Assembly: GCA_963663895.2 (NCBI GenBank)
Contig: CAXXRD010000001.1
Location: 576,001 to 640,000 of the forward strand
Direction of reading: 5' to 3'
DNA length: 64,000 nucleotides
DNA from: Dehalococcoidia bacterium
GTDB lineage: Bacteria; Chloroflexota; Dehalococcoidia; Bin125
Every line of letters begins with the position of its first letter. The stretch's first letter is position 1. The notes beneath the pieces are model-generated. The model ran no database searches. It saw nothing but the letters and a program-made list of their open reading frames with translations, and had not been told where the DNA came from. Made by a program: the position numbers and the translations under genes. This document shows, in pieces, positions 6,960 to 45,031 of the stretch.

Positions 6960-8702
6960 ATACGCACCTATTACGACATCCAGCTCGGTGAGCGCCGCGT
7001 GGAGGCGCGGGCGCTTCGCGGCGAGGCGATCGTGCAGGCGGGGCGCTACCTCATTGCAAAGACGCTGCTCGGAATGGGAGTGGCGGGCGTCGACCCGTTG
7101 TCCCCCGAGAACCCACTGATCTTCTCGGCGGGCCCGTTCGCCGGGACCGCCTTCTCCAACGCGAACCGCACAAGCGTGGGCTGCAAGAGCCCGCTCACGG
7201 GTGGGATCAAGGAAGCGAATGGGGGCGGTACCTTCGCCTACGCACTCGGGCAGCTAAGGATCTGCGGATTGACCCTGCTCGGGGCATCTCCGGATTGGGT
7301 CGTACTGCGGCTGACCAAGGACGGCGGTGTCGAGTTCCACGAGGCGGCGCCATACGTCGGCAAGGGCAACTTTGAGGCGGCCGATCTGCTGCTGGAACGC
7401 TACGGCAAGAGAGTCGCGATCGCGCTCTGCGGCCCCGTGGGGGAGTACCAGGGTCTCCTGGCAGGCGTAGCGTTCACGGACAAGGACCGCCGTCCGGCGC
7501 GGCTGGCGGCGCGGGGCGGGGTGGGCGCGGTGATGGGATCCAAGAAAGTGAAGGCGATCGTCGTGGACATGGACCGCCCGCCTCCGTTCGAGGAGCCCAA
7601 GAAAGTCCAAGCCAGCATTAAGGACTACGCCGGGAAGCTACAGGCCGACGAGATCATTCAGAACACGTACGCGCCCTTGGGCACCATGTCGATGGCCGAC
7701 CTCCAGAACACCGTGGGAGGACTGCCGGTGCGCAACTTCAGCGCAGGACAGCTGGCCAACGTCTCGGCTGGGGAGACGTTCAAGATGGGCGCCGACTACA
7801 TCGCCCCGCTCAACACGTCGCGGGGCGGATCGCAGACCCACGCCTGTATGCCAGGCTGCATCATCCGCTGCAGCAACGTGTATCACGACGCCAACGGCAA
7901 GGAAGTCGTCTCGCCGGTGGAGTACGAGACCTTGGGGCTCCTCGGATCGAATTGCGGAATCAGCGATCCTGACGAACTTGCGGAGCTGAATGCGATCGCG
8001 AACGACTTGGGTATCGACACGATCGAGACCGGTGCGACCTTGGCCGTCCTGATGGAGGCGGGGGTCGGCGCATTCGGCGACGCGGCTTTCATGCGCGACT
8101 GCCTGACGGAGATCCGCCAAGGCAGCGAGCAGGGACGCCGCTGGGCGCAGGGAACGGCGCGCGTGGGGGCGCACTACGGGGTGCGCCGGGTGCCGGTGAT
8201 CAAGCGACAAGCGATGAGCGCCTACGACCCGCGGGTGGTCGAGGCGACCGGCGTCGCGATGATGGCGACGGCGCAGGGAGCAGACCACACCGTCGGCAAC
8301 TTGGCACGGCTGAACACGTTCGAACTGGACAACGCGTCGCTGATAGAGCAAAGCCTGACCCAACAGCGGAAGGTGGCGGCGACGGACTCCTTGGGCCTCT
8401 GCGTCTTTGGTCAGAGCGTGACTAACGTCAACCTGGAGTTCTTGGTGAGCGCGTTGAACGCCGCCCACGGAACCGAACTCGGTGAGGAATTTTTCGAAGC
8501 ACTGGGAGATGCAACGCTCCGGTTGGAGCACGCGTTCAACCGCGAAGCCGGCTTCACGGAACAGGACGACGAGCTGCCGGCGTTCTTTTACGATGAGCCG
8601 CTGCCGCCCACCGGTCGAGTGGCTCGCTTCCACGCGGGTGACCTGCGGGGGATGTACGAGCGCCCGGCGCCCATAGCAGCGAAAGCCGAAGACCATGGTT
8701 AA
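6960..8702 (+). CDS. Aldehyde:ferredoxin oxidoreductase (tungsten/molybdopterin AOR family); probable ATA start
   Basis: KSPLTGGIKEANGGG, AARGGVGAVMGSKKVKAI, CMPGCIIRC, EYET, NDLGIDTIE motifs; in-frame (M)RTYYDIQL extension upstream of the GTG at 6999. Confidence 0.9.
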   Translation: MRTYYDIQLGERRVEARALRGEAIVQAGRYLIAKTLLGMGVAGVDPLSPENPLIFSAGPFAGTAFSNANRTSVGCKSPLTGGIKEANGGGTFAYALGQLRICGLTLLGASPDWVVLRLTKDGGVEFHEAAPYVGKGNFEAADLLLERYGKRVAIALCGPVGEYQGLLAGVAFTDKDRRPARLAARGGVGAVMGSKKVKAIVVDMDRPPPFEEPKKVQASIKDYAGKLQADEIIQNTYAPLGTMSMADLQNTVGGLPVRNFSAGQLANVSAGETFKMGADYIAPLNTSRGGSQTHACMPGCIIRCSNVYHDANGKEVVSPVEYETLGLLGSNCGISDPDELAELNAIANDLGIDTIETGATLAVLMEAGVGAFGDAAFMRDCLTEIRQGSEQGRRWAQGTARVGAHYGVRRVPVIKRQAMSAYDPRVVEATGVAMMATAQGADHTVGNLARLNTFELDNASLIEQSLTQQRKVAATDSLGLCVFGQSVTNVNLEFLVSALNAAHGTELGEEFFEALGDATLRLEHAFNREAGFTEQDDELPAFFYDEPLPPTGRVARFHAGDLRGMYERPAPIAAKAEDHG

Positions 8703-9960
8703 AGTGCTCCTGCAGATATATCCGATGATCCCGGCGGCGGACGAAGACGAGAGGCGCGCGCAGCGGCCGATCGGTCGTGATGTCGAGCGCTATCACGCGG
8801 TCATCAAGGAATGCGACGAGTTGGTCAAGGCCTGCGACGCGCTTGGCCTGTGGGGCGTCTCGACGATCGAGCACCACTTCCACTCGGAGGGCTACGAACT
8901 GGGTCCCAATCCCGGCATGCTGACGATGCGTTGGGGCACCATCACGAAGAACCTGCGCGTGGGCGCGCTGGGCTACGTGATGAGCGCGCAGCACCCGATC
9001 CGGGTCGCGGAAGAGATCGCGATCTTGGACCACCTCACCGACGGTCGCTGCTTCGCGGGCTTCGCACGTGGTTACCAGGATCGCTGGACGAACATCATCG
9101 GACAGCACCTGGGCACACGGGCGACGCATTCGGACGGCGGCCCCGACGACCAGATCAATCGCGATATCTTTGAGGAGCAGGTACAGATGGTGCTCGATGC
9201 CTGGACGCAGGAGAGCGTCGAGCAGAACACGCCGCTTTGGCAGATCCCCTACCCCTACGACGAGGGGATCAGTTGGTGGATGGCCGACGCTACCAAGCGG
9301 CTCGGCGCACCCGGCGAGATCGGGGACGACGGCCGGGTCCACCGGGTGAGTGTGGTGCCGGCGCCCTACACGAAGCCCTACCCGCCGGTCTTCGTCGCCA
9401 GCAGCGGCTCCGTGCCGACGATCGAGTATTGCGGCCGGATGGGCTTCATCCCTACCTACTTCACGAACGTCGAAAAGGGGGCGGAGATGGGGATGATGTA
9501 CCTCAACGCCGCCCGGTCGGCGGGGCACGATATCGCCTTCGGGGAGCGGCAGGCGACCACCCGCTGGCTGCAGCTCGGCGACACGCACGAGGAGGCGGTC
9601 TCAGCCGCCGCCTCTTACGATGCCGAGATCCAGCGCAACTTCTACAACCTGTTGGCGCTGGCGGCGCGCCGCCAAGTGCAGGCGCTGCCACAGGACACCA
9701 GCATCCATACCTTCACGGAGGTGGTAGAGCAATCGGAGCAGCACTGCGTGGGCACGGTCGACGAGGTGCGTGAAAAGATGGTCCGCCAGTGGCAGGAGCT
9801 CCCGGCGGAGTACTGCGTGCTGATCTTGCACTATGCCCAGCAGCCGCTCGACAGCTGCATCTGGAACCTCGACACGTTCATGCGGGAGATCAAACCGGCC
9901 TTGGACGAGATCACGGCCGCGGCGCGTCTGCCCGGCTCCACGCCGGTGGCCGACCACTGA
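8695..9960 (+). CDS. LLM class flavin-dependent oxidoreductase (luciferase-like)
   Basis: EHHF, HPIRVAEEIAILDHLTDGR..GFARGYQ motifs; overlaps the AOR stop codon. Confidence 0.92.
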   Translation: MVKVLLQIYPMIPAADEDERRAQRPIGRDVERYHAVIKECDELVKACDALGLWGVSTIEHHFHSEGYELGPNPGMLTMRWGTITKNLRVGALGYVMSAQHPIRVAEEIAILDHLTDGRCFAGFARGYQDRWTNIIGQHLGTRATHSDGGPDDQINRDIFEEQVQMVLDAWTQESVEQNTPLWQIPYPYDEGISWWMADATKRLGAPGEIGDDGRVHRVSVVPAPYTKPYPPVFVASSGSVPTIEYCGRMGFIPTYFTNVEKGAEMGMMYLNAARSAGHDIAFGERQATTRWLQLGDTHEEAVSAAASYDAEIQRNFYNLLALAARRQVQALPQDTSIHTFTEVVEQSEQHCVGTVDEVREKMVRQWQELPAEYCVLILHYAQQPLDSCIWNLDTFMREIKPALDEITAAARLPGSTPVADH

Positions 9961-10029
9961 CGATCGCGGCAGAACCAAGGCAGGCCGCGGCAGGCGGCGC
10001 CGTACGCGGCCTGCGGCCGGGCAGGCGGA

Positions 10030-11529
10030 TCAAGCAGAAGACTCGGCGTTCACCCTGTCGAAAAGATGCACGACCTCGCGAGACGGCTTCGGCGTGAGAA
10101 GGGAGATCACCACGGCCACGAACATGGCGATCAAGAAGCCCGGCGTGGCAGGCTGGATATCCCACATTCCCGAGGGTCCACCGTCCAGAAATCCCCAGAC
10201 CGAAGCGACCGCCGTGCCCGCCAGGATGGACGCGGCCGCTCCCCAGAAGTTGAACCGGCGCCAGAACAGCGCCAGGATCGTGACCGGCCCGAAGGCCGCA
10301 CCCATTCCGCCCCATGCGTAGCTGACCAATTCGAAGATGGATTCTGGGTAGACGATGGCGACCACCGCCGAAATGCCGCCGATGATCACCAGCAGCAGGC
10401 GGCCCAACCACACGCGCGCGTTCGCTGTGATCGCATAGGCAACGCGCTTGATGAACGGCAGGTCGTCGGTGGCGACGGCCGATGCCAGAAGCAACTGCGA
10501 ATCCGCCGTGCTCATCACGGCCGCGATCACCGCCGTCAGAAGCAGCCCCGTCACAACGGGATGGAAGAACGTCTCGGACACCACCAGATACACGCGCTCG
10601 GTGTCCGCGACCTCCGGCAGCAGGCCTGCGTCGGAGAGAGCGGGATAGGCAAGGATCCCGAGCAGCAACGCAAGCGCGTAAACGGCCACCACCCAGATCG
10701 TGGAGATGTTGCGGCTCCTGACAACCCTGTCTTCCCGCTCCAATGCCATGAAGCGCTGCAGGATCCGTTGGGCTCCGAAGGCGCCAAAAGCCCACCCTGC
10801 TGCCGAGAGAGCGAAGATGAAGTCGACCGTCCCGCCGTCGCCATGCGTCAACGGATTCAGAAAACCGGGGGAAGAGCCTCCCACTCCTGCAAACGGACTC
10901 TCCGACGAAGCGATCAACGTAGCCGTGATCACCAAAAGGCTGACCAGCATTAATATTGCCTGGGCCACGTCCGTCCTGGATACCGCCAAGAATCCGCCAA
11001 TTAATGTGTAGGACGCTACGGCGACAAGGGTCAGCAAGATGCCCGTCGTCGCTTCAATCCCAAAGAGCGTTTCCAGAAGCTTCGAGCCGCCAACCAGACC
11101 GGAGCTCACATAGAAAATGACAAAGAAAATCGTAATGATCGAAGTGAGCGTCCGTAAGATCCCAGTCGTATCTCCAAACCGAACCTCGAAAAACTCCGGA
11201 ATAGTCAGGGCATTGTTCGCTTCGATAGTGTACCGGCGCAACTTCTTGGCGAGGACCGTCCAGCTCAGCCAGATACCGACCGCCGCGCCTGCGGGGACCC
11301 ACATCTCCACGGCGCCGTGACTGAAGGCCAGAGCGGGGAGGGCCAGCATCGTCCAAGCGCTCGTCGTCGACGATCCGGCGCTGAGCGCCGCCGTGAAACT
11401 GCCCAACCGCCTGCCGGCCAGCGCATAGTCCGACATGCTCCGTATCTTGCGGGCCTTCACCAATGCGATGCCGATCAACATCACAAAGTAGAGGCAGAAA
11501 ACAACGATGACCCACGTGCTAGACATCAC
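10030..11529 (-). CDS. putP: Sodium/proline symporter (SSS family)
   Basis: DYALAGRRLG..ALSAG, TIPEFFEVRFGD, QRFMA, AAVMSTADSQLL, VSYAWGGMGAAFGP. Confidence 0.88.
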   Translation of the reverse strand: MMSSTWVIVVFCLYFVMLIGIALVKARKIRSMSDYALAGRRLGSFTAALSAGSSTTSAWTMLALPALAFSHGAVEMWVPAGAAVGIWLSWTVLAKKLRRYTIEANNALTIPEFFEVRFGDTTGILRTLTSIITIFFVIFYVSSGLVGGSKLLETLFGIEATTGILLTLVAVASYTLIGGFLAVSRTDVAQAILMLVSLLVITATLIASSESPFAGVGGSSPGFLNPLTHGDGGTVDFIFALSAAGWAFGAFGAQRILQRFMALEREDRVVRSRNISTIWVVAVYALALLLGILAYPALSDAGLLPEVADTERVYLVVSETFFHPVVTGLLLTAVIAAVMSTADSQLLLASAVATDDLPFIKRVAYAITANARVWLGRLLLVIIGGISAVVAIVYPESIFELVSYAWGGMGAAFGPVTILALFWRRFNFWGAAASILAGTAVASVWGFLDGGPSGMWDIQPATPGFLIAMFVAVVISLLTPKPSREVVHLFDRVNAESSA

Positions 11530-11589
11530 AATTCCGGTTTCTAGCGTATAAGTACAACATCTGAAGCCGTCGCCCGCGTGAGAATGATT

Positions 11590-12507
11590 TCAAATCAGCT
11601 GTCGGCGCTCAAGAAAATCGATGGTCAACGCGACACACTGCTCCGGCTTTTCCAACTGCAGAAAATGCGTGGCCTCGGGCAGAAAATCGTAGTCGAGATC
11701 GGTGAGGGTACCGAGGTCCACGCTTGGTAGAAACGCATGTGGCTCCGTCGGATCGGCGCCAATGGCCTTGACCGGACAGCGCACATTGCCCAGATCCAGC
11801 TGGAGCACCCAACCGAAAAAGAACTGCGCGACCTGTGCCTCGTACTCCCTGGGGCAACGAAGCGCATAGCCCTCCCCGTCCGGGACGGGGCGCAAGGTCG
11901 TCTCCGCCATGAGATCCACAACGCCCGGAAGCAACCGCTTGAAAGCAGGCGCGTCGCGGTAACGGTTTACGAACTCTTCCCGGTTTTCAAACCAAGTGCG
12001 GCGCCGCTTGATTACGTCGTGCATCTGGTGGCTCACTTGGTACATATCCTCCAGCAAGACGCTGGGGGTGCAGATCGCCGGATCGAAGAGGACGAGAGCA
12101 GAAAAAATATTCTCTGCCGAGGCTCCGCTCCATCCTTGCGCGTAGAGCAGGGCGGGCAGCGTCGACATGGAATGGAACACTCCTACCGCAGGCTTCTCCC
12201 CAAAGTTCCGGCGAATAGCCCGGACGACGCCTTCGCAGTCTTGCGCAAAGCTAGGAATGTGATGACTTCGTTGGTCGCCAACTGGGTTCCAGCCGTGGTT
12301 CCGAATGTCGTAGATGAACAGATCGAACCTCGCCGCCAATAGGGACCAGTACGGATAGTAGGTATCAGCGGATAACCCGTTGCCGTGACTCAATATCATC
12401 CGCGGACCGTCGGGGGTTCCGTGCCGCCGCACGTATACGCGCGCACCGTCGGCCATCTTCACTTCAAGAACCGCCAGCGCCTCCGGCAGCGTCCAGCGAT
12501 TAGTCAT
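11590..12507 (-). CDS. Alpha/beta fold hydrolase
   Basis: LSHGNG, YDIRNHG, GVFHSMS, THFLQLEKP. Confidence 0.85.
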   Translation of the reverse strand: MTNRWTLPEALAVLEVKMADGARVYVRRHGTPDGPRMILSHGNGLSADTYYPYWSLLAARFDLFIYDIRNHGWNPVGDQRSHHIPSFAQDCEGVVRAIRRNFGEKPAVGVFHSMSTLPALLYAQGWSGASAENIFSALVLFDPAICTPSVLLEDMYQVSHQMHDVIKRRRTWFENREEFVNRYRDAPAFKRLLPGVVDLMAETTLRPVPDGEGYALRCPREYEAQVAQFFFGWVLQLDLGNVRCPVKAIGADPTEPHAFLPSVDLGTLTDLDYDFLPEATHFLQLEKPEQCVALTIDFLERRQLI

Positions 12508-34470: not shown

Positions 34471-35604
34471 TCACCCGCTCGCAGCCACGGCGCGCGGATC
34501 CCAGGCGTGCACGTGCGGAAGCACGTGCTCCGCGAAGAGCCGCATGCTGCGCTCCGCCACGTCCGCGGGCATGCCGCCGTAGCGGAAGCTGAAGATGAAC
34601 TCCTCGGCGCTCGTCATCCGTTGGATGTACTCGATCTTCTCAAGGCACTGCTGCGGCGTGCCCCAAGCCTGGGGCTCGGCGTTGAACTCGCCGATCTCCT
34701 CGGGCGTCTTCTTCGTCAGGGTCTTGCCGAAACTGGCGTAGTAGTCGTAGCCGGCGGCGTTCTTGAACTGCGCGCTATCGGTGAAATGGTAATGACGCTC
34801 GATACTGTCCTGCATCTCGACCGTATGCCGCAGGATCACCTCCCAGGCCTCGTCTTCCGAGTCGGCGCAGCTCACGTTCACCACCACCGTCGGCTGGAGC
34901 GGCTCCCAGCCCCGCTCCGCACGCACGGCGTTGAAATCCCGCACGTCCTTCTGATATCCGTCCCAGCTCTTCTGGTTCGTGAGCAGCATGCCCACCCCGG
35001 CGTTCGCCAAGATCGACAAGCTCTCGGGGCTCACCCAGGCCGCCTTGAGCGTGCCGGCCAGGTTCGCCGTGCGCGGCCGCGGCCGGATGGTGGTCTCCGG
35101 GATCGTGAAGTGCTCGCCCTCGAACGAGAACCACTCCTGGGTGAGCGCCAAGCGGATGATCTCGATCGACTCCATGAAGCGGCCGCGTGACTCACTCAAG
35201 GGAACGCGGTAGGTGTCGAACTCGCGCTGCGCCACGCCGCGGCCCACGCCCAGGATCAAGCGCCGGCCCTGAAGCATGTGATCCAGCACGCAGATCTGCT
35301 CCGCGATCGTGATGGGGTCGTACCAGGGCAGAACGATCACCATCGAGCCGACGTCCAGACGCGAACTCAGCCCCGCAAAGTGGCTCAACTGGAACAAGGG
35401 GCTCCCGCTCATGATGTAGGGAGCGAAATGGTGGTCGAGCGCCCACATCGCGTCGAAGCCGAGCGGATCGGCAAGGCCATAGAGACGCAGCTCTTCGTCC
35501 CAGATCTGCTGGTCCGAGACGACCGGCGCGCGATCGACCGCCTTGGCCTCGAAGCGTTCCCAGTCCTGGTAATTCTGAAAGTTGAAGCAGACACCAGCCT
35601 TCAT
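34471..35604 (-). CDS. LLM class flavin-dependent oxidoreductase
   Basis: DHHF, LPWYDPITIAEQICVLDHMLQGR..GVGRG, GTPQQC, SMRLFAEHV; AAGGAG RBS. Confidence 0.92.
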   Translation of the reverse strand: MKAGVCFNFQNYQDWERFEAKAVDRAPVVSDQQIWDEELRLYGLADPLGFDAMWALDHHFAPYIMSGSPLFQLSHFAGLSSRLDVGSMVIVLPWYDPITIAEQICVLDHMLQGRRLILGVGRGVAQREFDTYRVPLSESRGRFMESIEIIRLALTQEWFSFEGEHFTIPETTIRPRPRTANLAGTLKAAWVSPESLSILANAGVGMLLTNQKSWDGYQKDVRDFNAVRAERGWEPLQPTVVVNVSCADSEDEAWEVILRHTVEMQDSIERHYHFTDSAQFKNAAGYDYYASFGKTLTKKTPEEIGEFNAEPQAWGTPQQCLEKIEYIQRMTSAEEFIFSFRYGGMPADVAERSMRLFAEHVLPHVHAWDPRAVAASG

Positions 35605-36040
35605 CTTGGACTCCTTGCTCCACGAAACCAGAGCGCCTGGGAGAGGCCGCGACACGGCCCACCCGCACCGCGCAGGCTACATCCGCTGCCCCCATCGCCG
35701 CTAGACGCAATCGAGCCGGTACCCGTTTCCCGGCCACGAGTTTCGGAGAGCTTGCGCCGCGTGGAGGCCGGATGCGCAGGTCAAGCAGCGCTTCTCGGAC
35801 TTTGCCGGTCTCCCCGCGGCGATGCAGCGCCGGACAACGCCCGCGGTCCAACCCTAGCCGGGCCGCTCTTCCGGGAACGGGCACCTCGCTCCCAGCGCCA
35901 CGCCCCTGCCTGCCCCCTGTTAACTCTCAAACTTATGTTGTGAAACCAGAGGACTCGCAACAGGAACCCGCTCCCATGACGACCAAACGCGATGGCGGGT
36001 GCGTTCCGCGCGCGCTAGCAACCACGGTGCGGCTGCTCCT

Positions 36041-37301
36041 ATGACTGTACGCCCTCCCAACCGCCTCGCTCGCCGGCTCGGCCTCGGCGGCGCGACCGTG
36101 ATCGGTCTCGGATCGATGATGGACGCGGGGCATCTTCATCGCAGTGGGCCCTGCTGCCGCCGCCGTCGGCTCGGGGCTGCTGCTGGCGCTGGCGCTGGCC
36201 GCGGCGGTCGCCACATGCAACGCCACCGCCTCCGCCCGCCTCGCGGCTCGCTACCCGGCCTCGGGCGGCACCTACGTCTACGGCCGCGAGCGGCTCGGCA
36301 GCGGCTGGGGCTTCATCGCCGGCTGGGCCTTCCTGGCGGGGAAGATCGCGACGGCCGCCACCATTGCCCTCGCTTTCGCGGCGCACACGGCGCCAGGCGC
36401 CGAACGCCCGGTCGCCGTCGCGGTGGTGGCGCTCTTCACAGCAGTCAACCTGCTCGGGATCACCAAGACCGCCTGGGGCACCGGCGCACTCGTCGCGATC
36501 GTCCTGGCCATGCTGGCGATCACCGTCGGCGCCATGCTCGGCGGCGGCACCGTCACCAGCAGCCACCTCACGCCGTTCTGGCCGAGCGATCATCCCCTTG
36601 ATCTGTTGCGCGGGGCCGGCTTTCTCTTCTACGCCTTCGCCGGCTACGCACGGATCGCGACTCTCGGCGAGGAGGTCAGGCACCCGGCTCGCACCATTCC
36701 TCGCGCCATCGCGCTTGCCCTGGTGACCGTCCTCGGCGTCTACGCACTCGTCGCCATCAGCGCCATCCTCGCGGCCGGACCGCAGCAGCTTGCCGGCACG
36801 GACACGCCGATCCTCGCGGCCGTCGAGCTCGGCTCCTTGAACGAACTCGCCCCCGCCGTCCGCATCGGCGCCGCCATCGCAGCACTCAGCGTCCTCGTCG
36901 CCCTGCTCGCGGGCACCAGCCGCACCGTCTTCGCAATGGCGGCCAACGCAGACCTCCCGCCTCCTCTCGCCGCCGTCCAACCCCGAACGCAGGTCCCACA
37001 TCGCGCCGAGCTGCTGGTGGCGGCGCTGGTGATGATCGCGGTCGCCTTTTTCAACCTCCGCGAAGCGCTCGGCTTTGCCGCCTTCACGGTCCTCGCCTAT
37101 TACGCGATCACGAACCTATCCGCCTGGACCCTCAGCGGCCCGCGCTCCTTGCCGCTGCGCTTGGTCGCCACGCTCGGCCTCATCGGCTGCGGCGCCCTGG
37201 CGATCGCCCTCCCCACCGAATCCGTCATCAGCGGAGCAGCCGTCCTAGCGGTGGGCTTCGCGGTCTGGCTTATTCGGCGACGACTCTTAACCGATCGCTA
37301 A
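36041..37301 (+). pseudogene. APC-family amino acid permease with a frameshift near 36125-36130 (pseudogene or sequencing error)
   Basis: LARRLGLGGATVIGLGSMM.AG in one frame continues as IFIAVGPAAA..YPASGGTYVYG..FYAFAGYARIATLGEEV in another; one extra G in GCGGGGC. Confidence 0.8.
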
Positions 37302-37772: not shown

Positions 37773-38473
37773 CCCCGCCGCTCACCCGCCCACTGATCGC
37801 CGAATTCTTCGGAACTTTCGGCTTGGTGTTCCTCGGCGCCGGCGCCGCCACCATTGATGCGCACACGGACGGATCGCTCGGACGCGTGGGGATCGGTGTC
37901 ACCTTCGGATTGGCCGTCGCGGCGATGATCCTCGCCTTCGGCCGCGTCAGCGGCGCCCATATCAATCCCGCCGTCACCCTCGGCCTGACGGCGGCAGGCC
38001 ACTTCCCCGTGCGTTCTCTCCCCCCCTACGTCATCGCGCAGCTCGCCGGAGCCCTGCTCGCCGCCGCCGCGCTCTGGGGATTGTTCCCGAGCCAACCCGG
38101 CCATCTCGGCGCGACACTCCCAACGGGCGATATCTGGCAATCGTTCGGGCTTGAGATCGTCCTGACCTTCGTGCTCATGTACGGAATCTTCGCCACGGCC
38201 GTCCAAGCAGGCGCTCCCCTCCCAGTGATCGCCGCGACCGCCGGCGGGATCGTCGGCCTCGAAGCCACCTTCGCCGGCGGTATCTCCGGCGCCTCGATGA
38301 ATCCCGCCCGCTCCTTCGGCCCCGCCGTCGCCGCCGCCGCCTGGGACGACCTCTGGATCTACTGGCTCGCTCCAGCACTCGGCGCCCTGGTCGCCGTGCC
38401 GCTCCACCGCCTGCTCCGCCCGACGCCAGCGTCCACCGTATCCGTCAACCACGGCTCCGATCATCAATGCTAA
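37769..38473 (+). CDS. MIP family aquaporin/aquaglyceroporin (probable arsenite channel)
   Basis: AEFFGTF, SGAHINPAVT, GASMNPARSFGP; GTGA overlap with arsC. Confidence 0.92.
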   Translation: MTPPLTRPLIAEFFGTFGLVFLGAGAATIDAHTDGSLGRVGIGVTFGLAVAAMILAFGRVSGAHINPAVTLGLTAAGHFPVRSLPPYVIAQLAGALLAAAALWGLFPSQPGHLGATLPTGDIWQSFGLEIVLTFVLMYGIFATAVQAGAPLPVIAATAGGIVGLEATFAGGISGASMNPARSFGPAVAAAAWDDLWIYWLAPALGALVAVPLHRLLRPTPASTVSVNHGSDHQC

Positions 38474-38507
38474 CGGCCTCTTTACGCGCTTTTAGCCCAC
38501 GCTTAAA
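38469..38507 (+). promoter_or_regulatory. Four 11-bp-period direct repeats (Pho-box-like)
   Basis: GCTAAC(38469), CTTTAC(38480), TTTAGC(38491), CTTAAA(38502) in an AT-richer patch. Confidence 0.5.
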
Positions 38508-38578
38508 TCACCGACGGGCCATCCGGCATACCGTGAATGCACAAATAGCGCGCCGATGCATGCTCCAGAAAGGCCCTC

Positions 38579-38758
38579 TTGAAAACACTCTTCCGGCACC
38601 GCCCGCATCCACGCCGCCATGCCCCCCGTCGCTCCCATTGGTCCCCGCACATCATGAGCCAACTCACGGCGCTGTACGCCACCGCGCACCTCGACACCCT
38701 CGTCGGCACCCCGCACGACTTCAACCGCTGCAACTGCCCGCACTGTCGAAACGACTGA
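38579..38758 (+). CDS. Small (59 aa) His/Arg-rich protein with C-terminal CxCxxC motif
   Basis: AGAAAGG RBS, TTG start; MKTLFRHRPHPRRHAPRRSHWSPHIMSQLTALYATAHLDTLVGTPHDFNRCNCPHCRND; below the ORF-track length cutoff. Confidence 0.5.
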   Translation: MKTLFRHRPHPRRHAPRRSHWSPHIMSQLTALYATAHLDTLVGTPHDFNRCNCPHCRND

Positions 38759-38992
38759 GGCTCGCCACCGCAGTGCCCACTAGGCGCGGCCGGCTTCAAT
38801 CCCGCCTTGCGTCCTCATAACGGCTTCCCAATCCGTCCGCCGCAAGCGCCGACTCGGCCTGCCCTGCCAGCGGCCGCTTCCGTGGGTCGCGGGCCGGCGG
38901 CGGAGCCACCGCCGTGCTTCACCCCCGTGCCTCTCTCCGATCCGTCCAAGTCACCGCTCCCCCAATCCGTTCGGCAGGCTACGCTGCCCTCC

Positions 38993-40519
38993 GTGGAAGG
39001 CCGCATCGCCGTTATCGACATCGGTTCCAATTCCGGGCGCGTCGTCATCGTGCAGCCGGAAACCGGGGGGCATCTCGAAATCATTGACGAGCAGAGTGCT
39101 CCTCTGCGTCTCGCTCTCGAGGTCAGCCGCAGCGGAGAACTCAGCCCCGCCGCCATTGAGTGGACCCTGCACGCTCTCAAAGACTTCACGGCCGTCGCGC
39201 GCGGCGCGGGAGCGGTCCGCACCGTCGCCGTCGCGACCGCCGCCGTGCGCCGCGCCACGAACGGCGAGGCCTTCGTTCAGCGCCTTCGCGACGAACTCGA
39301 CTTAGACGTCACCCTCATCGACGCGCAAGAGGAAGCCCGCCTGGCCTTTCTCGGGGCGGTCTACGGCCTCCCGGCCGAGGACGGTTTCTTCGTCGACATC
39401 GGCGGCGGCAGTCTGCAGATCGTCCACTTTGCGAACCGCCAGCCCCTTGGCACCTGGTCCATCCCAATCGGCGCGCTCTTGCTCGCCGAGCGCTTCCTCA
39501 CGAGCGACCCGCCCACTACGAACGAACGGAAGGCCGCCGCCGATCATGTCAAGCAAGGGCTCGCCGAGGCGCGAATGCCCCCGCCCGACGGCGGCGCCCA
39601 AACCCTTGTGGGGACCGGCGGCACCATTCGCAACCTGGCCAAGATCGACCGGCGCCGGCGCGCCTATCCCATCGCCCGCCTCCACGGCTACCGCCTCCAA
39701 CGCCGCAATCTCCAGCGGATCGTCGCCAGCCTCGCAACGCAACCCCTCACGGATCGGGCCCAGACCCCAGGCTTGAACCCCACCCGCGCCGACTCGATCG
39801 TGGCCGGCGGCATCGCGCTTGACGCCGTGATGCGCTACCTGCGCACGGACCTGCTCACCGTCAGCGGCCAGGGCTTGCGCGAAGGGATCGCACGAGGGGC
39901 GGTCTTCGAGCATCTTCCCTCCGCCCACGCCGTCCGTGAAGCCTCGGTCGAGGCGCTCTGCCGCCGTTTCGCGGATGCCGACCGCGAGCGCGGCCAGCGG
40001 CGCGCGCAAGCCGCCAAGATCCTTCTCGATCACCTGCTCACCGACATCCCTTCTCCCATTGCCGAAGCCGTCCTCCTCGGGGCCCGCCTGCTCGACATCG
40101 GCAGCGTGATCGACTTCTACAACCGGCATAAGCTCACCGCTGAAATCGTCCTCCGCACGGACCTCAACGGCTTTTCGCACCGCGATCTCGCCCGCCTCGC
40201 CGCGGTGATCCGGATCGCAGAGAAGCCTGGGCTCAGCGCCAGCACCTATCGACCTCTGCTCGATCTGCGCGAAGACGAAACCCTGGAGCGGGCGGCGACT
40301 ATCCTGGCCCTAGCGGACGAGAGCGTGCGCCGCACGCCGCCAGCGCAACCGGTCCAGCTTGACTGCTGGAGCACCGGCCCGACCGTGCACCTGCGCTTCC
40401 CGGCGGGAGGAAATTGGCGCCCCGGAAAGATCGGCACGCGCTTCCTCCATGCCTTCGGACGCGCACTTGTGCTAGAAGAGTCCTTGGATGCCGCCAGCCG
40501 AGAGGGACACGAAACTTAA
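38993..40519 (+). CDS. ppx: Ppx/GppA exopolyphosphatase family protein with degenerate C-terminal HD domain
   Basis: IAVIDIGSNS, VATAAVR.A.NG, EEARL, DIGGGS, GTGGTIRNL, RADSI, GLREG; start uncertain (38927 or 38993). Confidence 0.92.
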   Translation: MEGRIAVIDIGSNSGRVVIVQPETGGHLEIIDEQSAPLRLALEVSRSGELSPAAIEWTLHALKDFTAVARGAGAVRTVAVATAAVRRATNGEAFVQRLRDELDLDVTLIDAQEEARLAFLGAVYGLPAEDGFFVDIGGGSLQIVHFANRQPLGTWSIPIGALLLAERFLTSDPPTTNERKAAADHVKQGLAEARMPPPDGGAQTLVGTGGTIRNLAKIDRRRRAYPIARLHGYRLQRRNLQRIVASLATQPLTDRAQTPGLNPTRADSIVAGGIALDAVMRYLRTDLLTVSGQGLREGIARGAVFEHLPSAHAVREASVEALCRRFADADRERGQRRAQAAKILLDHLLTDIPSPIAEAVLLGARLLDIGSVIDFYNRHKLTAEIVLRTDLNGFSHRDLARLAAVIRIAEKPGLSASTYRPLLDLREDETLERAATILALADESVRRTPPAQPVQLDCWSTGPTVHLRFPAGGNWRPGKIGTRFLHAFGRALVLEESLDAASREGHET

Positions 40520-40532
40520 TGGCGCAAGATTA

Positions 40533-41294
40533 ATGGTGCAAGACAACTTCCAGCGCGGAGAATCCGGCTTTCCCGGCCGCCTCATCGTCGTCGAAGGGAT
40601 CGACGGCTCCGGGAAAAGCACCCAGATCGACCTACTCCAGAAATGGCTCCAGAGTCGAGGCTATCTCACGATCTTCACGGAGTGGAACTCCTCTCCCATC
40701 GTCAGAGCCACGACGCGCCGCGGGAAGCGGCGCCACCTGCTGACTCCCCTGTCCTTCAGCTTGATCCACTCCGCCGACTTCGCCAGTCGCGTGCATGCCC
40801 AGGTTCTGCCCGCCCTGCAGGCCGGCGCCATCGTGCTCGCCGACCGCTACGTCTACACGGCGTTCGCGCGCGACGCCGCGCGCGGGGTCAGCCGCCCCTG
40901 GCTGCGCCGGCTCTACTCTTTCGCCGCCGACCCCACGCTCGCCTTCTATTTCGACGTCCCCCTCGAAGAAGCCATCCAGCGCATCGTCCAGTCCCGCGCC
41001 GCCATCAAGTACTACGAGGCCGGCATGGACATGAACCTGCACGAGGACCTCTTCGAGTCGTTCCGCATTTTCCAAGGGCAGATCCTGAACGAGTACGAGC
41101 ACCTCGTCGAGGAGTTCCATCTCATTCGGATCGACGCCACCGAGCCGCTCGTCGACCAGCAACAGCGCGTGCGCGAGATCGTCGAGCCGCACCTTCAAGG
41201 AGTCGCCCGCATCCCCGATCGCGATATGCACGACTTCCTCCGCCAAGTGGGGTTGCAGGGCCGCTATATCCGGGAAGCGCAGCCAGCTCCATGA
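40533..41294 (+). CDS. Thymidylate kinase-like P-loop kinase (first of tandem pair)
   Basis: LIVVEGIDGSGKSTQ, TEWNSS, LADRY..TAFARD, KYYEAGMD. Confidence 0.88.
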   Translation: MVQDNFQRGESGFPGRLIVVEGIDGSGKSTQIDLLQKWLQSRGYLTIFTEWNSSPIVRATTRRGKRRHLLTPLSFSLIHSADFASRVHAQVLPALQAGAIVLADRYVYTAFARDAARGVSRPWLRRLYSFAADPTLAFYFDVPLEEAIQRIVQSRAAIKYYEAGMDMNLHEDLFESFRIFQGQILNEYEHLVEEFHLIRIDATEPLVDQQQRVREIVEPHLQGVARIPDRDMHDFLRQVGLQGRYIREAQPAP

Positions 41295-42019
41295 CGCGCC
41301 TCGCCTTCTACGGTGACCCTCCTCCCAACGTCGAAGGGGCCGATCTCCCCGGCCGGCTCATCGTCCTCGAAGGGACGGACGGTGTCGGCCGCTCCACCCA
41401 TATCGCCCTGCTGAAGGAATGGCTCGAGGCCCACGGCCACGCCGTGATCGACACCGGCCTGCGCCGCTCCGATCTCGCCGGCCGCGGCATTGAGCGGGCC
41501 AAGCGAGGCAACACCCTGGACAGCCTCACCCTCAACCTCTTCTATGCAACCGATTTCCTCGACCGTCTCGAACACCAGATCATCCCCGCCCTCCGCGCCG
41601 GGATGGTCGCACTCGTGGACCGCTACATCTTCTCCCTGATCGTCCGCGCGGCCGTGCGCGGCGTGCCGCGCGACTGGATTCAAGATGTCTACGGCTTCGC
41701 CCTCATCCCGGACAAGGTCATCTACCTCGACATCGACATCGCCCAACTACAGCCGCGGGTCGTCGCCAGCCACGGATTCGATTACTGGGAATCCGGCCAG
41801 GACTACCTCCGCACCCCCGGCCTCTTTGACGGCTGGGTCACGTACCAAACCGCGCTGCTGGCGGAGTTCCGGCGGCTTGCGGATCAGCATGGCTTCACCG
41901 TCGTCAACGCGCGCGGCACCCTCGCCGAGGTCTTCCACGACCTCCAACACGAGGTTCGCCAAGTCGTCGAAGGGATGTCACGCCAGTCGGTCCTCCCCCC
42001 AGAACCGAACGACGCGTGA
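41291..42019 (+). CDS. Thymidylate kinase-like P-loop kinase (second of pair; Walker A K->R)
   Basis: LIVLEGTDGVGRSTH, LFYATDF.DRLE, VDRYIFS, FDYWESG; ATGA overlap. Confidence 0.88.
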   Translation: MTRLAFYGDPPPNVEGADLPGRLIVLEGTDGVGRSTHIALLKEWLEAHGHAVIDTGLRRSDLAGRGIERAKRGNTLDSLTLNLFYATDFLDRLEHQIIPALRAGMVALVDRYIFSLIVRAAVRGVPRDWIQDVYGFALIPDKVIYLDIDIAQLQPRVVASHGFDYWESGQDYLRTPGLFDGWVTYQTALLAEFRRLADQHGFTVVNARGTLAEVFHDLQHEVRQVVEGMSRQSVLPPEPNDA

Positions 42020-42053
42020 ACGGAGCCCGGCCACGCGCCACCCTCCACGAGTC

Positions 42054-42554
42054 CTAAGGTGCCAGTGCGCGCAGCACCCGAGGAGGGAGAAACTCCAAGA
42101 GTGCGCCGCGTCCCTCTGCCGGCGCGCCCCAGCACTGCACTCTTGCCACGCCGCCCTTCTTCCACTCCGCGGTCATTGCGCGCGCCGAGCCAGCGAGCAG
42201 ATACGCCAGCACCTCACTGAGCAACGGCTCATGTCCCACCACTCCCACGCTGCCTCGCCCGCGTTGCTCCGCGAGCACCCGCACAACACTGGCGGGATCC
42301 CCGATCGCCAATGCCTCGCAGGGCGTCGGCGGCGGCCAGCCCGCTTCGGCGTGCGCGATCTGCGCCGTCTCCCATGCCCGCTCATATGGACTCGAAAGGG
42401 AAACTTCCACCGCTGCCCCTAAGGCGCGCAAGCCCCGGGCCGCGGCTCGAAAGCGACGCCGTCCTCGATCCGTCAGCGGCCGGAGCGAATCATCCGGCCA
42501 GGCTTCCGCGTCGCGCTCGGCCGCGATGGCATGCCGGACCAAGTAGATCTCCAC
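42054..42554 (-). CDS. sixA: Phosphohistidine phosphatase SixA
   Basis: YLVRHA, RPLTDRG, SSPYERAWETA, VVGHEP, KKGG. Confidence 0.9.
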   Translation of the reverse strand: MEIYLVRHAIAAERDAEAWPDDSLRPLTDRGRRRFRAAARGLRALGAAVEVSLSSPYERAWETAQIAHAEAGWPPPTPCEALAIGDPASVVRVLAEQRGRGSVGVVGHEPLLSEVLAYLLAGSARAMTAEWKKGGVARVQCWGAPAEGRGALLEFLPPRVLRALAP

Positions 42555-42558
42555 GCGC

Positions 42559-44151
42559 TTAGGACTCCTGGAGTGCCGCCCGGAGCGTCCGCCACCGCTC
42601 CTCCCGCACCCGCGCATACGCCGACGGGAAAGCGAGACGCAGCTCCAGTATCTGCACCCGATATCGCTCCAGCACCTCGCCCATGGCGAGCACCGTCCGC
42701 GGCGGCAGCTCCGTACCTTCCTCCTCTGCGATCATCCGCAGCCGCCCTATCGCCACGGCAGCGTCTTGGTGCGCGCCCAGGACCTCTTGCAAGCGCCGCA
42801 GCGCCCGTGCCAGCCGCTTCGCCGCCCGGCCGTACTCGTCCGACATACACTCCAGGGCGTAGCGCAGTCGCTTCCCGCGGATCCGCAAGGCGTGATACGC
42901 GCTCGCAGGGGAATCCACAGCGATCGCGTCCCCTTGCCTGCGCACCGCGCGCAGATACGGGCGCAGCAAGCCCGGCAGCGCCTCACGCGCGGGCGTCAGC
43001 GCCGCCGCCGGCGCGCGCGCCGGCCCTTCTCGAACGAGATCCGTCATCCCCGCTCCGAGCCGCGCGTATCGCTCCGAGTTCAAGGCCTGCAGCATCCCCG
43101 CCCGCGCGACACGCCGCTCGGCTTCCAGTAACGGCCGGAGCGACTCGAAAGCCGCCCGTTCGTCGGCTTCCGCGGCCTCTTGCCACGCCTCCAACTGTTC
43201 CAGCTGCACATCCGTATCGCGTACCGCTCCCAACTCTGCGCCAAGCCAGCGCAGCTCCCGCCGCACAGCAGCGCTTTCACCCGGCAAGCACCGCTGAAAG
43301 AGACGCAACGCCGCGCGCAGGCGGCGCACCTGGACGCGCATGCGATGCAGCGCCTCAACGTCGTCGCCCAGACGCGTACCCGGCTCTTCCTCCAGCAGAG
43401 AGCGCCATTGCTCACGGAGAGCTGCGAATGCCACCTCTCCCACGGATCCCTCCGGCAGTCCCCGTCGGGGGGTCAGATCCCGGCCCACCAGCGGCCGCAG
43501 CCCGGCCAACGCCAACCCGAGCTCGTACTTCGACTGCGTCGCCGGCCGGATCGTGCAGTCCTCCTGCAGAGCGTCCACGAGAAGCCGCAGCGCTGCTTCA
43601 TGTCCCTCCGCCACCTCCACTTCCACCCGTTGCAGATGCCCGGATACGCGACGTCCTTTCACGAGCACCGCCGATGTGTCGAGCGCGATCTCCCCGGCAA
43701 CGGCGCCATTCGCCTCGACCGGGAGCGCTTGCCGCAGCATCCGGAGCTCGAACAAGGGCCGCAGGGAGCGCACGCCAAGTGCCCGCAGCCGCTCTCCCAC
43801 CGGGCCGGGGGCATCCAACAGCGTCCCCGGCTCCGCCGTCGTGACGCGTTCGCTGATCTCTACCCGACTCCTGAGCGCCCCGCTCGCCTCACCGAAGGAC
43901 TTCAACGTCGCCGTGATCCGTCCCTCGCTGCTACGCAGGCGCAACGCGTACCGGCTTCGGTACACCCGCCAATCGTCGCTGTCTAAATACAGGTCGCCGA
44001 TCTTCCGCTGGACCGGCGCCGCGGCGCGCAAGGGCGGCGGCAACGACGGCGACAGGCACCAGGCACGAACCGCGCTCAGGTCCGCCGCGTCGAATTGCCA
44101 CTCGACTTCGCGCTCGCCATCGTTTCGGATCCGCGGGGATACCTTCGTCAC
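42559..44151 (-). CDS. CYTH (triphosphate tunnel) + CHAD domain protein
   Basis: EREVEWQF, DLYLDS..ALRLR, IALD, VEVE, SKYELGL (CYTH); EALHRMRVQVRRLR, LGAVRDTDV, HALRIRGKRLRYALE, LQEVLGAHQD (CHAD). Confidence 0.93.
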   Translation of the reverse strand: MTKVSPRIRNDGEREVEWQFDAADLSAVRAWCLSPSLPPPLRAAAPVQRKIGDLYLDSDDWRVYRSRYALRLRSSEGRITATLKSFGEASGALRSRVEISERVTTAEPGTLLDAPGPVGERLRALGVRSLRPLFELRMLRQALPVEANGAVAGEIALDTSAVLVKGRRVSGHLQRVEVEVAEGHEAALRLLVDALQEDCTIRPATQSKYELGLALAGLRPLVGRDLTPRRGLPEGSVGEVAFAALREQWRSLLEEEPGTRLGDDVEALHRMRVQVRRLRAALRLFQRCLPGESAAVRRELRWLGAELGAVRDTDVQLEQLEAWQEAAEADERAAFESLRPLLEAERRVARAGMLQALNSERYARLGAGMTDLVREGPARAPAAALTPAREALPGLLRPYLRAVRRQGDAIAVDSPASAYHALRIRGKRLRYALECMSDEYGRAAKRLARALRRLQEVLGAHQDAAVAIGRLRMIAEEEGTELPPRTVLAMGEVLERYRVQILELRLAFPSAYARVREERWRTLRAALQES

Positions 44152-44287
44152 AAGACAGACAGCATAACGATCTTGTCGCTTGCCCGTGTCGCTCGTCCGC
44201 AGTCAACCGTTGATTGCCGGGAGATACAGCGACCGATCGAATCCGGCGGCTCGACCGAGAGACTCCACCTCGTTCGCCCGCAACGCC

Positions 44288-45031
44288 TCAGCCGTCGGCG
44301 GCCAGCACCTCGGCCTGTGCAAAGTCAGCTTGAGCCGCGTCCGCCTCGCCTAAGCGGTCGTGGATCTCACCGCGGGTCCGATAGGCCATCGCAAGGGCGG
44401 GATCCAGTCCGATCGCCTCGTTGGCGTCCGCAAGGGCTCGGGCAAGATCGTTCTTCGCAAGGTATGTCCTCGCACGCGCGACGAACGTCTCCGCGACATC
44501 ATTGTTCAGCAATATTGCGCGGTCAAAGTCGACAAGCGCGGCATCCATATCTCCGAGATCCAGATAGGCAAGCCCGCGAATCTGATGCACGACTGCCAGC
44601 ACAGCGAACGAACAGGGCGCGCGGTGAGGTGGCCCGTGGGCGATCCGAGGGCAGCGTGTGCCGACTGGCCCGATCGTGATCGCACGATCGGCATCCGCAA
44701 CCGCGCCCAGCGAATCCCCTTGGAGAAGGCGGATCTCGGCGCGGTTGCTGAAAGCAAACGGCAATCCGTCATCGGCCGCGATCGCACGATCGAAGTCCAC
44801 CAACGCCAACTCTATTCGATCCATCGATCGATAAAGCTCCCCGCGATCGTTATAGGCGAGCGCGAACTCGTCATTGCTGGCGATCGCATCGCTGAAGGCC
44901 ATGATCGCACCGGCGAAGTCTCCTTGCTTGCGCAATTCCACCCCGCGTTCGTAGTCGGCCTGGCCTGGGGTACCGCAGCCCACGAACAGAACCGCGAGTC
45001 CAGCTATCACAACGAGCGGTATGCGTCGCAT
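44288..45031 (-). CDS. Tetratricopeptide repeat lipoprotein
   Basis: FVGC lipobox; repeated AY..RG..A..DFDRAI TPR units. Confidence 0.88.
   Translation of the reverse strand: MRRIPLVVIAGLAVLFVGCGTPGQADYERGVELRKQGDFAGAIMAFSDAIASNDEFALAYNDRGELYRSMDRIELALVDFDRAIAADDGLPFAFSNRAEIRLLQGDSLGAVADADRAITIGPVGTRCPRIAHGPPHRAPCSFAVLAVVHQIRGLAYLDLGDMDAALVDFDRAILLNNDVAETFVARARTYLAKNDLARALADANEAIGLDPALAMAYRTRGEIHDRLGEADAAQADFAQAEVLAADG

Follow-up and report, generated by a model that had tools for sequence, protein, structure and literature searches.

A probable bacterial PPK3-type polyphosphate kinase locus in a Dehalococcoidia genome

The stretch of DNA analysed here, hereafter the window, comprises 64,000 nucleotides of a Dehalococcoidia genome (assembly GCA_963663895.2, contig CAXXRD010000001.1, positions 576,001 to 640,000), and contains a five-gene locus (38,993 to 44,151) that very probably represents a bacterial operon for PPK3, a two-subunit polyphosphate (polyP) kinase already published for an archaeon. 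On the forward strand, a gene for a Ppx/GppA exopolyphosphatase (ppx; Pfam Ppx-GppA, 199.3 bits, and Ppx-GppA_III, 38.6 bits) is followed after 13 nt by two thymidylate kinase (Tmk)-like genes, A (40533..41294; Thymidylate_kin, 67.5 bits) and B (41291..42019; Thymidylate_kin, 63.9 bits), which overlap through an ATGA visible in the sequence. This unit converges on a second one on the reverse strand, in which a gene for a CYTH-CHAD fusion protein (42559..44151; CHAD, 203.2 bits, and CYTH, 42.8 bits) precedes a sixA-like histidine phosphatase gene (42054..42554; His_Phos_1, 42.9 bits), with the GTG start of the latter lying 4 nt past the CYTH-CHAD stop and an alternative open reading frame (ORF) start at 42617. 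Of the two fused domains, CHAD binds polyP granules and CYTH is of the triphosphate-tunnel type. All five genes lie where the original prediction, made from the DNA letters alone, had mapped them, according to both the ORF list and the family scans. The ppx ORF spans 38807..40519, and the start chosen in that prediction, 38993, is a Val codon 62 codons into it; this start is plausible because family models begin near ORF residue 66, as TIGR03706 does. Two of the accessory proteins score under the cut-offs of their TIGR models, namely Ppx (262.6 bits against TIGR03706, cut-off 307) and the SixA-like protein (61.7 bits against TIGR00249, cut-off 74.5). Neither PPK1 nor PPK2 has a match within the window, in agreement with the original prediction; in the entire assembly (2.37 Mb, five contigs, 91% complete) PPK1 gave no match, and the sole PPK2 match is a separate 280-residue protein on contig C5. 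A promoter and terminator scan of 38300-44500 returned no promoter-like and two terminator-like sites, not above the level of shuffled sequences.

The locus closely resembles the operon saci_2017-2021 of Sulfolobus acidocaldarius, which encodes PPK3 in the gene order sixA-ppx-Saci_2019-Saci_2020-CHAD (Hofmann et al., J Biol Chem 2026, PMC12995831; preprint bioRxiv 2024, 10.1101/2024.08.28.610084). According to that paper, Saci_2019 (cPPK3) synthesizes polyP from ATP and runs the reverse reaction, in which polyP and ADP yield ATP, at a far higher rate, while Saci_2020 (rPPK3) is inactive alone and boosts activity about six- to ten-fold, the complex (SaPPK3) being an alpha2-beta2 heterotetramer. 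The authors report that neither protein forms thymidine diphosphate (dTDP) or has thymidine monophosphate (dTMP) kinase activity, a task carried out by a third, canonical Tmk, and that PPK3 has not retained the residues that bind dTMP; the legend of Fig. S14 attributes the inactivity of rPPK3 to the lost catalytic arginine of the DRX motif. The paper also draws an analogy to the two-domain class II PPK2 enzymes, which combine an active with an inactive module. The original prediction was aware of no biochemical characterisation of such a pair; in this respect it is superseded by SaPPK3, an archaeal enzyme only.

The correspondence between the two loci extends to all five gene families, since each has sixA, ppx, CHAD and a pair of neighbouring paralogues with the Tmk fold. 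It extends further to the resemblance of A to the crystallized homologue of cPPK3, to the loss of canonical Tmk invariant positions from both subunits, and to the heteromer, here by prediction. Differences also exist. Our locus is bacterial and consists of two convergent units, whereas the SaPPK3 genes form a single co-directional operon, and CHAD is here fused to CYTH. For comparison we recovered two Sulfolobales-type operons, L110 and L122, from metagenome contigs (GC 0.33-0.35) with a back-translated TEWNSSDW pattern that retrieved 34 loci; both have the order sixA-ppx-c-r-CHAD, where c and r denote the catalytic and partner subunits. A metagenome scan with representative P0375 as query gave 588 pattern-matching stretches, none of which was confirmed.

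In a search against all PDB sequences, the top match of A was S. tokodaii ST1543/STK_15430 (2plr/5h70; 170.2 bits, E 5.9e-49), compared to at most 66.7 bits for canonical Tmks. B matched the same protein at 107.9 bits, and the ST1543 chains were also the first structural matches of the AlphaFold model of B (mean predicted local distance difference test score, pLDDT, 85.9). When each GTDB species was scanned through a single genome, at least 588 stretches were retrieved, 549 of them encoding a relative; the best 80 of these 549 loci were kept. The Walker A motif of A reads G-S-G-K-S-T, its lysine being present in 80/80 copies of A and the DRY motif in 78/80; TEWNSS, which is common to A and the archaeal c subunits, and KYYEAGMD are likewise found in A. 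In B the Walker A motif reads G-V-G-R-S-T, with arginine replacing lysine, an exchange detected by pattern in 76 of 78 loci and by eye in one more (L026), that is, in at least 77 of 78. B also carries DRY, the segment DYWESG and, at its N-terminus, a conserved F-Y-G..P-P extension. The distinct segments named in the original prediction (TEWNSS and KYYEAGMD in A, DYWESG in B) are thus all in the translations, whereas its claim that both copies keep the P-loop and DRY holds for DRY in both proteins and for the P-loop in A, but not in B. Comparison of alignment columns indicates that K65, R86, R113, R117 and R150 are common to A and B, whereas three basic positions conserved in A (columns 95, 104 and 220) are no longer basic in B. 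PPK2 (PF03976), a P-loop enzyme that transfers phosphate between polyP and nucleotides with a preference for consuming polyP, is a different family from A and B; A matches TIGR03708 (PPK2) at E 0.0014, over the P-loop alone. As a separate observation, the B genes of L078 (7750-8437) and L083 (7717-8342) were matched in two to three pieces in differing frames, and each of these splits is a frameshift or an assembly error.

Canonical Tmks share the fold and the P-loop/DRX/lid layout with A and B, both of which exceed the Pfam cut-off for the family. To examine where the proteins part, we compared columns among eight canonical Tmks, 28 A rows, 28 B rows and the two Sulfolobales r rows. The E-P-G-G columns, invariant in the canonical enzymes (one G in 7/8), read W-N-S-S in A, L/M-T/R-R-S in B and L-Q-M/K-S in the Sulfolobales r subunits. 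At three further invariant positions, F (A79) is replaced by H in A and by Y in both B and r, R (A83) by F in A and B and by L in r, and Q (A113) by R in A and B and by W in r. We take the E-P-G-G, F, R and Q columns to be dTMP contacts of canonical Tmks. Their replacement holds in all or nearly all of the 28 A and 28 B rows. This agrees with the statement in PMC12995831 that PPK3 does not conserve the dTMP-binding residues. The catalytic motifs behave differently: the Walker A lysine is kept in 8/8 canonical Tmks and 28/28 A rows, is arginine in 28/28 B rows, and is once R and once K in the Sulfolobales r subunits, while DRX reads D-R-F/Y in canonical Tmks, D-R-Y in A and B, and D-G-Y in the Sulfolobales r subunits. 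In its DRY motif and its fixed Walker A arginine, bacterial B therefore differs from the latter.

Phylogenetic analysis gave a consistent separation. Three trees were built from the relatives' canonical Tmks, A, B, the archaeal c and r subunits and representatives, including a quick tree and a careful tree. The relatives' canonical Tmks split from all the other rows with support of 98 (quick tree) and 100/100 (careful tree), and all A rows cluster together (97 and 99/97, respectively). The B rows group with the two archaeal r subunits (100 in the third tree and 100/100 in the careful tree), although the archaeal r branch is very long, at 4.2 changes per column, and the archaeal c subunits, together with representative P0375, lie at the base of the PPK3 clade in no settled order. 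Canonical Tmks are thus set apart from A and B as a separate clade, of which the relatives carry an extra copy. A further subgroup, comprising P0386, P0299 and their relatives, has N-K-Y in the DRY place and keeps the Walker A lysine, the reverse of the B pattern; the quick tree places it next to the B clade (91), the careful tree does not. We dropped P0386 and P0299 as candidate archaeal rPPK3s, as their sole close named relative, P0393 (58% identical), carries the label Candidatus Margulisiibacteriota and the other names listed are bacterial.

The two Tmk-like proteins are also closely linked to each other. B was found within 78 of the 80 loci, the two misses being loci that stop at contig ends, and lies mostly directly downstream of A. 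Pairwise identities of A and B correlate (r 0.76; 0/2000 permutations as high), and since their trees mirror each other the pair travels as a unit; mean pairwise identity across phyla is 59% for A and 53% for B. Single-chain A-B fusions occur in P0002, P0004, P0006 and P0241. Other fusions join the cPPK3-like domain to Ppx domain III/HD (as A-B-Ppx domain III/HD), SPX, NUDIX, inorganic pyrophosphatase of polyvalent proteins, or MFS with DUF2252/APH, and these partners point to phosphate and phosphoanhydride chemistry, not to DNA precursors. When A and B were modelled as a complex, the pair scored 0.81, compared to 0.00 for the best of three controls; 116 of 157 solved complexes attain this mark, as do 2 of 215 mismatched pairs. 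The model runs agreed in at least 87% of contacts, partner pLDDT was at least 82, and the predicted interface includes the conserved B N-terminal residues 8-13. The modelled complex thus agrees with the predicted A-B heteromer, although the pass may partly reflect likeness to Tmk homodimers, since these are among the solved structures. Four Planctomycetota loci (L026, L031, L039 and L042) have the order B-CHAD-ppx-A.

Among the fusion proteins, some architectures are worth recording in their own right. In eukaryotes, SPX and SPX-MFS proteins are typical components of phosphate homeostasis. Here the cPPK3-like domain is combined with SPX, or with an MFS transporter and DUF2252/APH, in P0293, P0361, P0325, P0326, P0332, P0334, P0344 and P0356 (431-1276 residues), and with the 'InPase' pyrophosphatase domain of polyvalent proteins in P0288 (2575 residues), P0323 and P0360. 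P0288 additionally carries an ART-PolyVal ADP-ribosyltransferase domain, and the InPase/ART-PolyVal fusions suggest use on mobile elements or phages.

Taken with the homology to SaPPK3, the match of A to ST1543, the trees and the pairing in 78/80 loci, these results support what the original prediction had proposed, namely a heteromeric polyP synthase or polyP:nucleotide phosphotransferase. On this model, A and B would assemble into a Tmk-fold P-loop kinase that moves the terminal phosphate reversibly between polyP and ADP/ATP. By analogy with SaPPK3, from which we infer substrates, reaction direction and stoichiometry alike, ATP formation from polyP and ADP would be favoured, and polyP would be made only at high ATP/ADP. 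A, with its intact Walker A lysine, DRY arginine, TEWNSS and conserved basic residues, would be the catalytic subunit, and B an obligatory partner that binds and activates it. Ppx would degrade the polymer and CYTH-CHAD would bind the granule, with the SixA-like phosphatase presumably accompanying both, as in the Sulfolobus operon.

The 80 loci span about 12 phyla, with sources in Chloroflexota, Actinomycetota, Planctomycetota, Armatimonadota, Acidobacteriota, Nitrospirota (Nitrospira being among the holders), Thermodesulfobacteriota, Eisenbacteria, Binatia, Omnitrophota, Dormibacterota and Bdellovibrionales, and among protein clusters formed at 50% identity, 314 matched A with E <=1e-30. To evaluate the distribution closer to the window, we surveyed 41 genomes (this genome and others from its genus, family and class), 14 of which bear the pair. 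PPK1 was found in 6/41 genomes and in 0/14 pair-bearing ones, and PPK2 in 8/41, including all three of this genus. The proposed anti-correlation with ppk1 and ppk2 therefore stands for PPK1 and fails for PPK2, and this genus differs from most PPK3 holders, which are described in PMC12995831 as lacking both PPK1 and PPK2. In Data S1 of that paper, the culturable Chloracidobacterium is among the organisms with PPK3 but neither PPK1 nor PPK2. CHAD was detected in 9/41 genomes and Ppx over its cut-off in 9/41, in this genus, in genus g9 and in two class-level genomes. The sister genus g9 (locus L139 of genome G010, 8429-12166 and onwards) has a ppx-sixA-CYTH-CHAD-ppk1 cluster, plus PPK2, and no A-B pair. 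Its accessory module is similar to ours (ppx 46% and CYTH-CHAD 38% identical to the window proteins), but its kinase is PPK1 and the flanks are not syntenic. Synteny between the two loci was accordingly rejected, only the ppx-sixA-CHAD module being common; the presence of this module with another kinase fits the kinase-swap idea put forward in PMC12995831.

Several observations weigh against the assignment to PPK3. A shares just 40-42% identity with the cPPK3 proteins of the Sulfolobales-type operons L110 and L122, and a full-text literature search for an assay of a bacterial PPK3 found archaeal work only. The presence of PPK2 means that the pair is not the only candidate polyP kinase of the genus. 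By tblastn, ppx lies near the pair in 38 of the 80 loci, sixA in 23 and CHAD in 14, at least one of them in 45, so that linkage is not universal; Pfam searches on the neighbours of 31 of the 35 other loci added four, giving at least 49/80. Eleven of the 14 pair-bearing genomes lack CHAD, Ppx over the cut-off, PPK1 and PPK2, and in two of these genomes (G004 and G008) the neighbours of the pair are rimM, ffh and an FAD oxidase. In the assembly as a whole, A and B are the only Thymidylate_kin (PF02223) matches. Approximately unbiased (AU) tests did not reject a clade of archaeal c and r subunits of their own, as expected from a separate archaeal duplication (p 0.62 and 0.27); with the long archaeal r branch, this leaves orthology of B and rPPK3 favoured rather than firm. 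Finally, the rPPK3 lesion is not seen in B, which keeps D-R-[YW] in at least 71/78 loci: all 28 aligned B rows have DRY, R92, R119, R123 and R156, whereas the two Sulfolobales r rows have G, Q and W at the DRY arginine, R92 and R119.

The alternative that one or both proteins are ordinary dTMP kinases whose place beside ppx is incidental appears highly improbable, even though several simple indicators favour it: both proteins pass the Pfam cut-off, relatives carry the name 'dTMP kinase' in their sources, the assembly has no further PF02223 match, and against TIGR00041 (canonical Tmk, cut-off 83.25) A scores 83.2. B, at 64.6, lies further under that cut-off. This model does not separate PPK3 from Tmk, as the cPPK3 of L110 passes it at 105.9. 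Against the alternative stand the replaced canonical columns, and the occurrence of a canonical tmk (~150 bits) in addition to the pair (~60-75 bits) in both same-genus genomes and in 13/24 family genomes. In G002, a same-genus genome, the tmk region aligns to contig C2 of our assembly only from 268 nt beyond the tmk gene, and the C2 locus stops near 808483, which appears to be the contig end, ~270 nt short of the tmk place. The apparent lack of a separate tmk, which the original prediction had suggested looking for, is thus most simply explained by loss of the gene in an assembly gap just past the apparent end of C2; although none is in the assembly, we reject the idea that the pair is the organism's only Tmk. 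Together with the separate A/B clade and the absence of dTDP formation by the Sulfolobus counterparts (PMC12995831), this supports the earlier claim that A and B are not dTMP kinases. An unlikely, if less remote, alternative is a heteromeric P-loop kinase for a non-polyP acceptor or donor, such as another nucleotide or a small polyphosphorylated metabolite, only loosely tied to polyP genes. It would account for the 31/80 loci without ppx, sixA or CHAD in their flanks (four of the 31 judged by tblastn only), for the absence of Ppx and CHAD from 11/14 pair-bearing relatives, and for the unusually high conservation of both proteins across phyla. Strict phyletic coupling of the pair to Ppx and CHAD is indeed rejected by these relatives, and the predicted linkage to ppx, CHAD and sixA survives as frequent but not obligatory. 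However, a reversible polyP kinase requires neither Ppx nor CHAD, the fusion partners (Ppx domain III/HD, SPX, NUDIX and inorganic pyrophosphatase) belong to phosphoanhydride and phosphate-homeostasis themes, and the sole assayed member both makes and uses polyP (PMC12995831).

Within the PPK3 reading, the role of B could differ from that in SaPPK3. It is conceivable, though we consider it doubtful, that bacterial B provides a second functional site, for nucleotide sensing or binding, polyP binding, chain priming or a second activity. The arginines that B retains and the Sulfolobales r subunits lack would be consistent with such a site, as would the Walker A exchange, which is fixed without decay, and the conservation of B, which matches that of A across about 12 phyla. 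Against such a site, a lysine-to-arginine exchange in the Walker A motif of P-loop NTPases usually abolishes phosphoryl transfer, although nucleotides can still bind. B also lacks TEWNSS and the basic columns 95, 104 and 220 of A, and its strong conservation could equally reflect the interface alone. If B is a second working site, bacterial PPK3 would be a mechanistically distinct two-site enzyme. In that case it would also stand alone as a polyP enzyme in several Chloroflexota genera, since Ppx, CHAD, PPK1 and PPK2 were not detected in those of their genomes that were searched.

Read as a bacterial PPK3 operon, the locus is largely of a familiar kind, given that the system is already published for an archaeon. 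Proteins of this type are nonetheless still mislabelled as dTMP kinase in databases, and the bacterial partner subunit diverges from the characterised archaeal subunit at precisely the residue to which the inactivity of the latter is attributed. PMC12995831 speaks of PPK3 in 'a few bacteria'. With relatives encoded in at least 549 stretches, in about 12 phyla and in 314 clusters, PPK3 may be a polyP enzyme that is common among uncultured bacteria of soil and water.

Directly upstream of ppx, the segment 36144-38473 encodes an amino-acid permease, an ArsC-like arsenate reductase/low-molecular-weight phosphatase and an MIP channel. These genes are missing from the corresponding position in G002, which is otherwise syntenic and where ppx directly adjoins homologues of the window genes at 34474-36041; the block is an insertion here or a deletion in G002.

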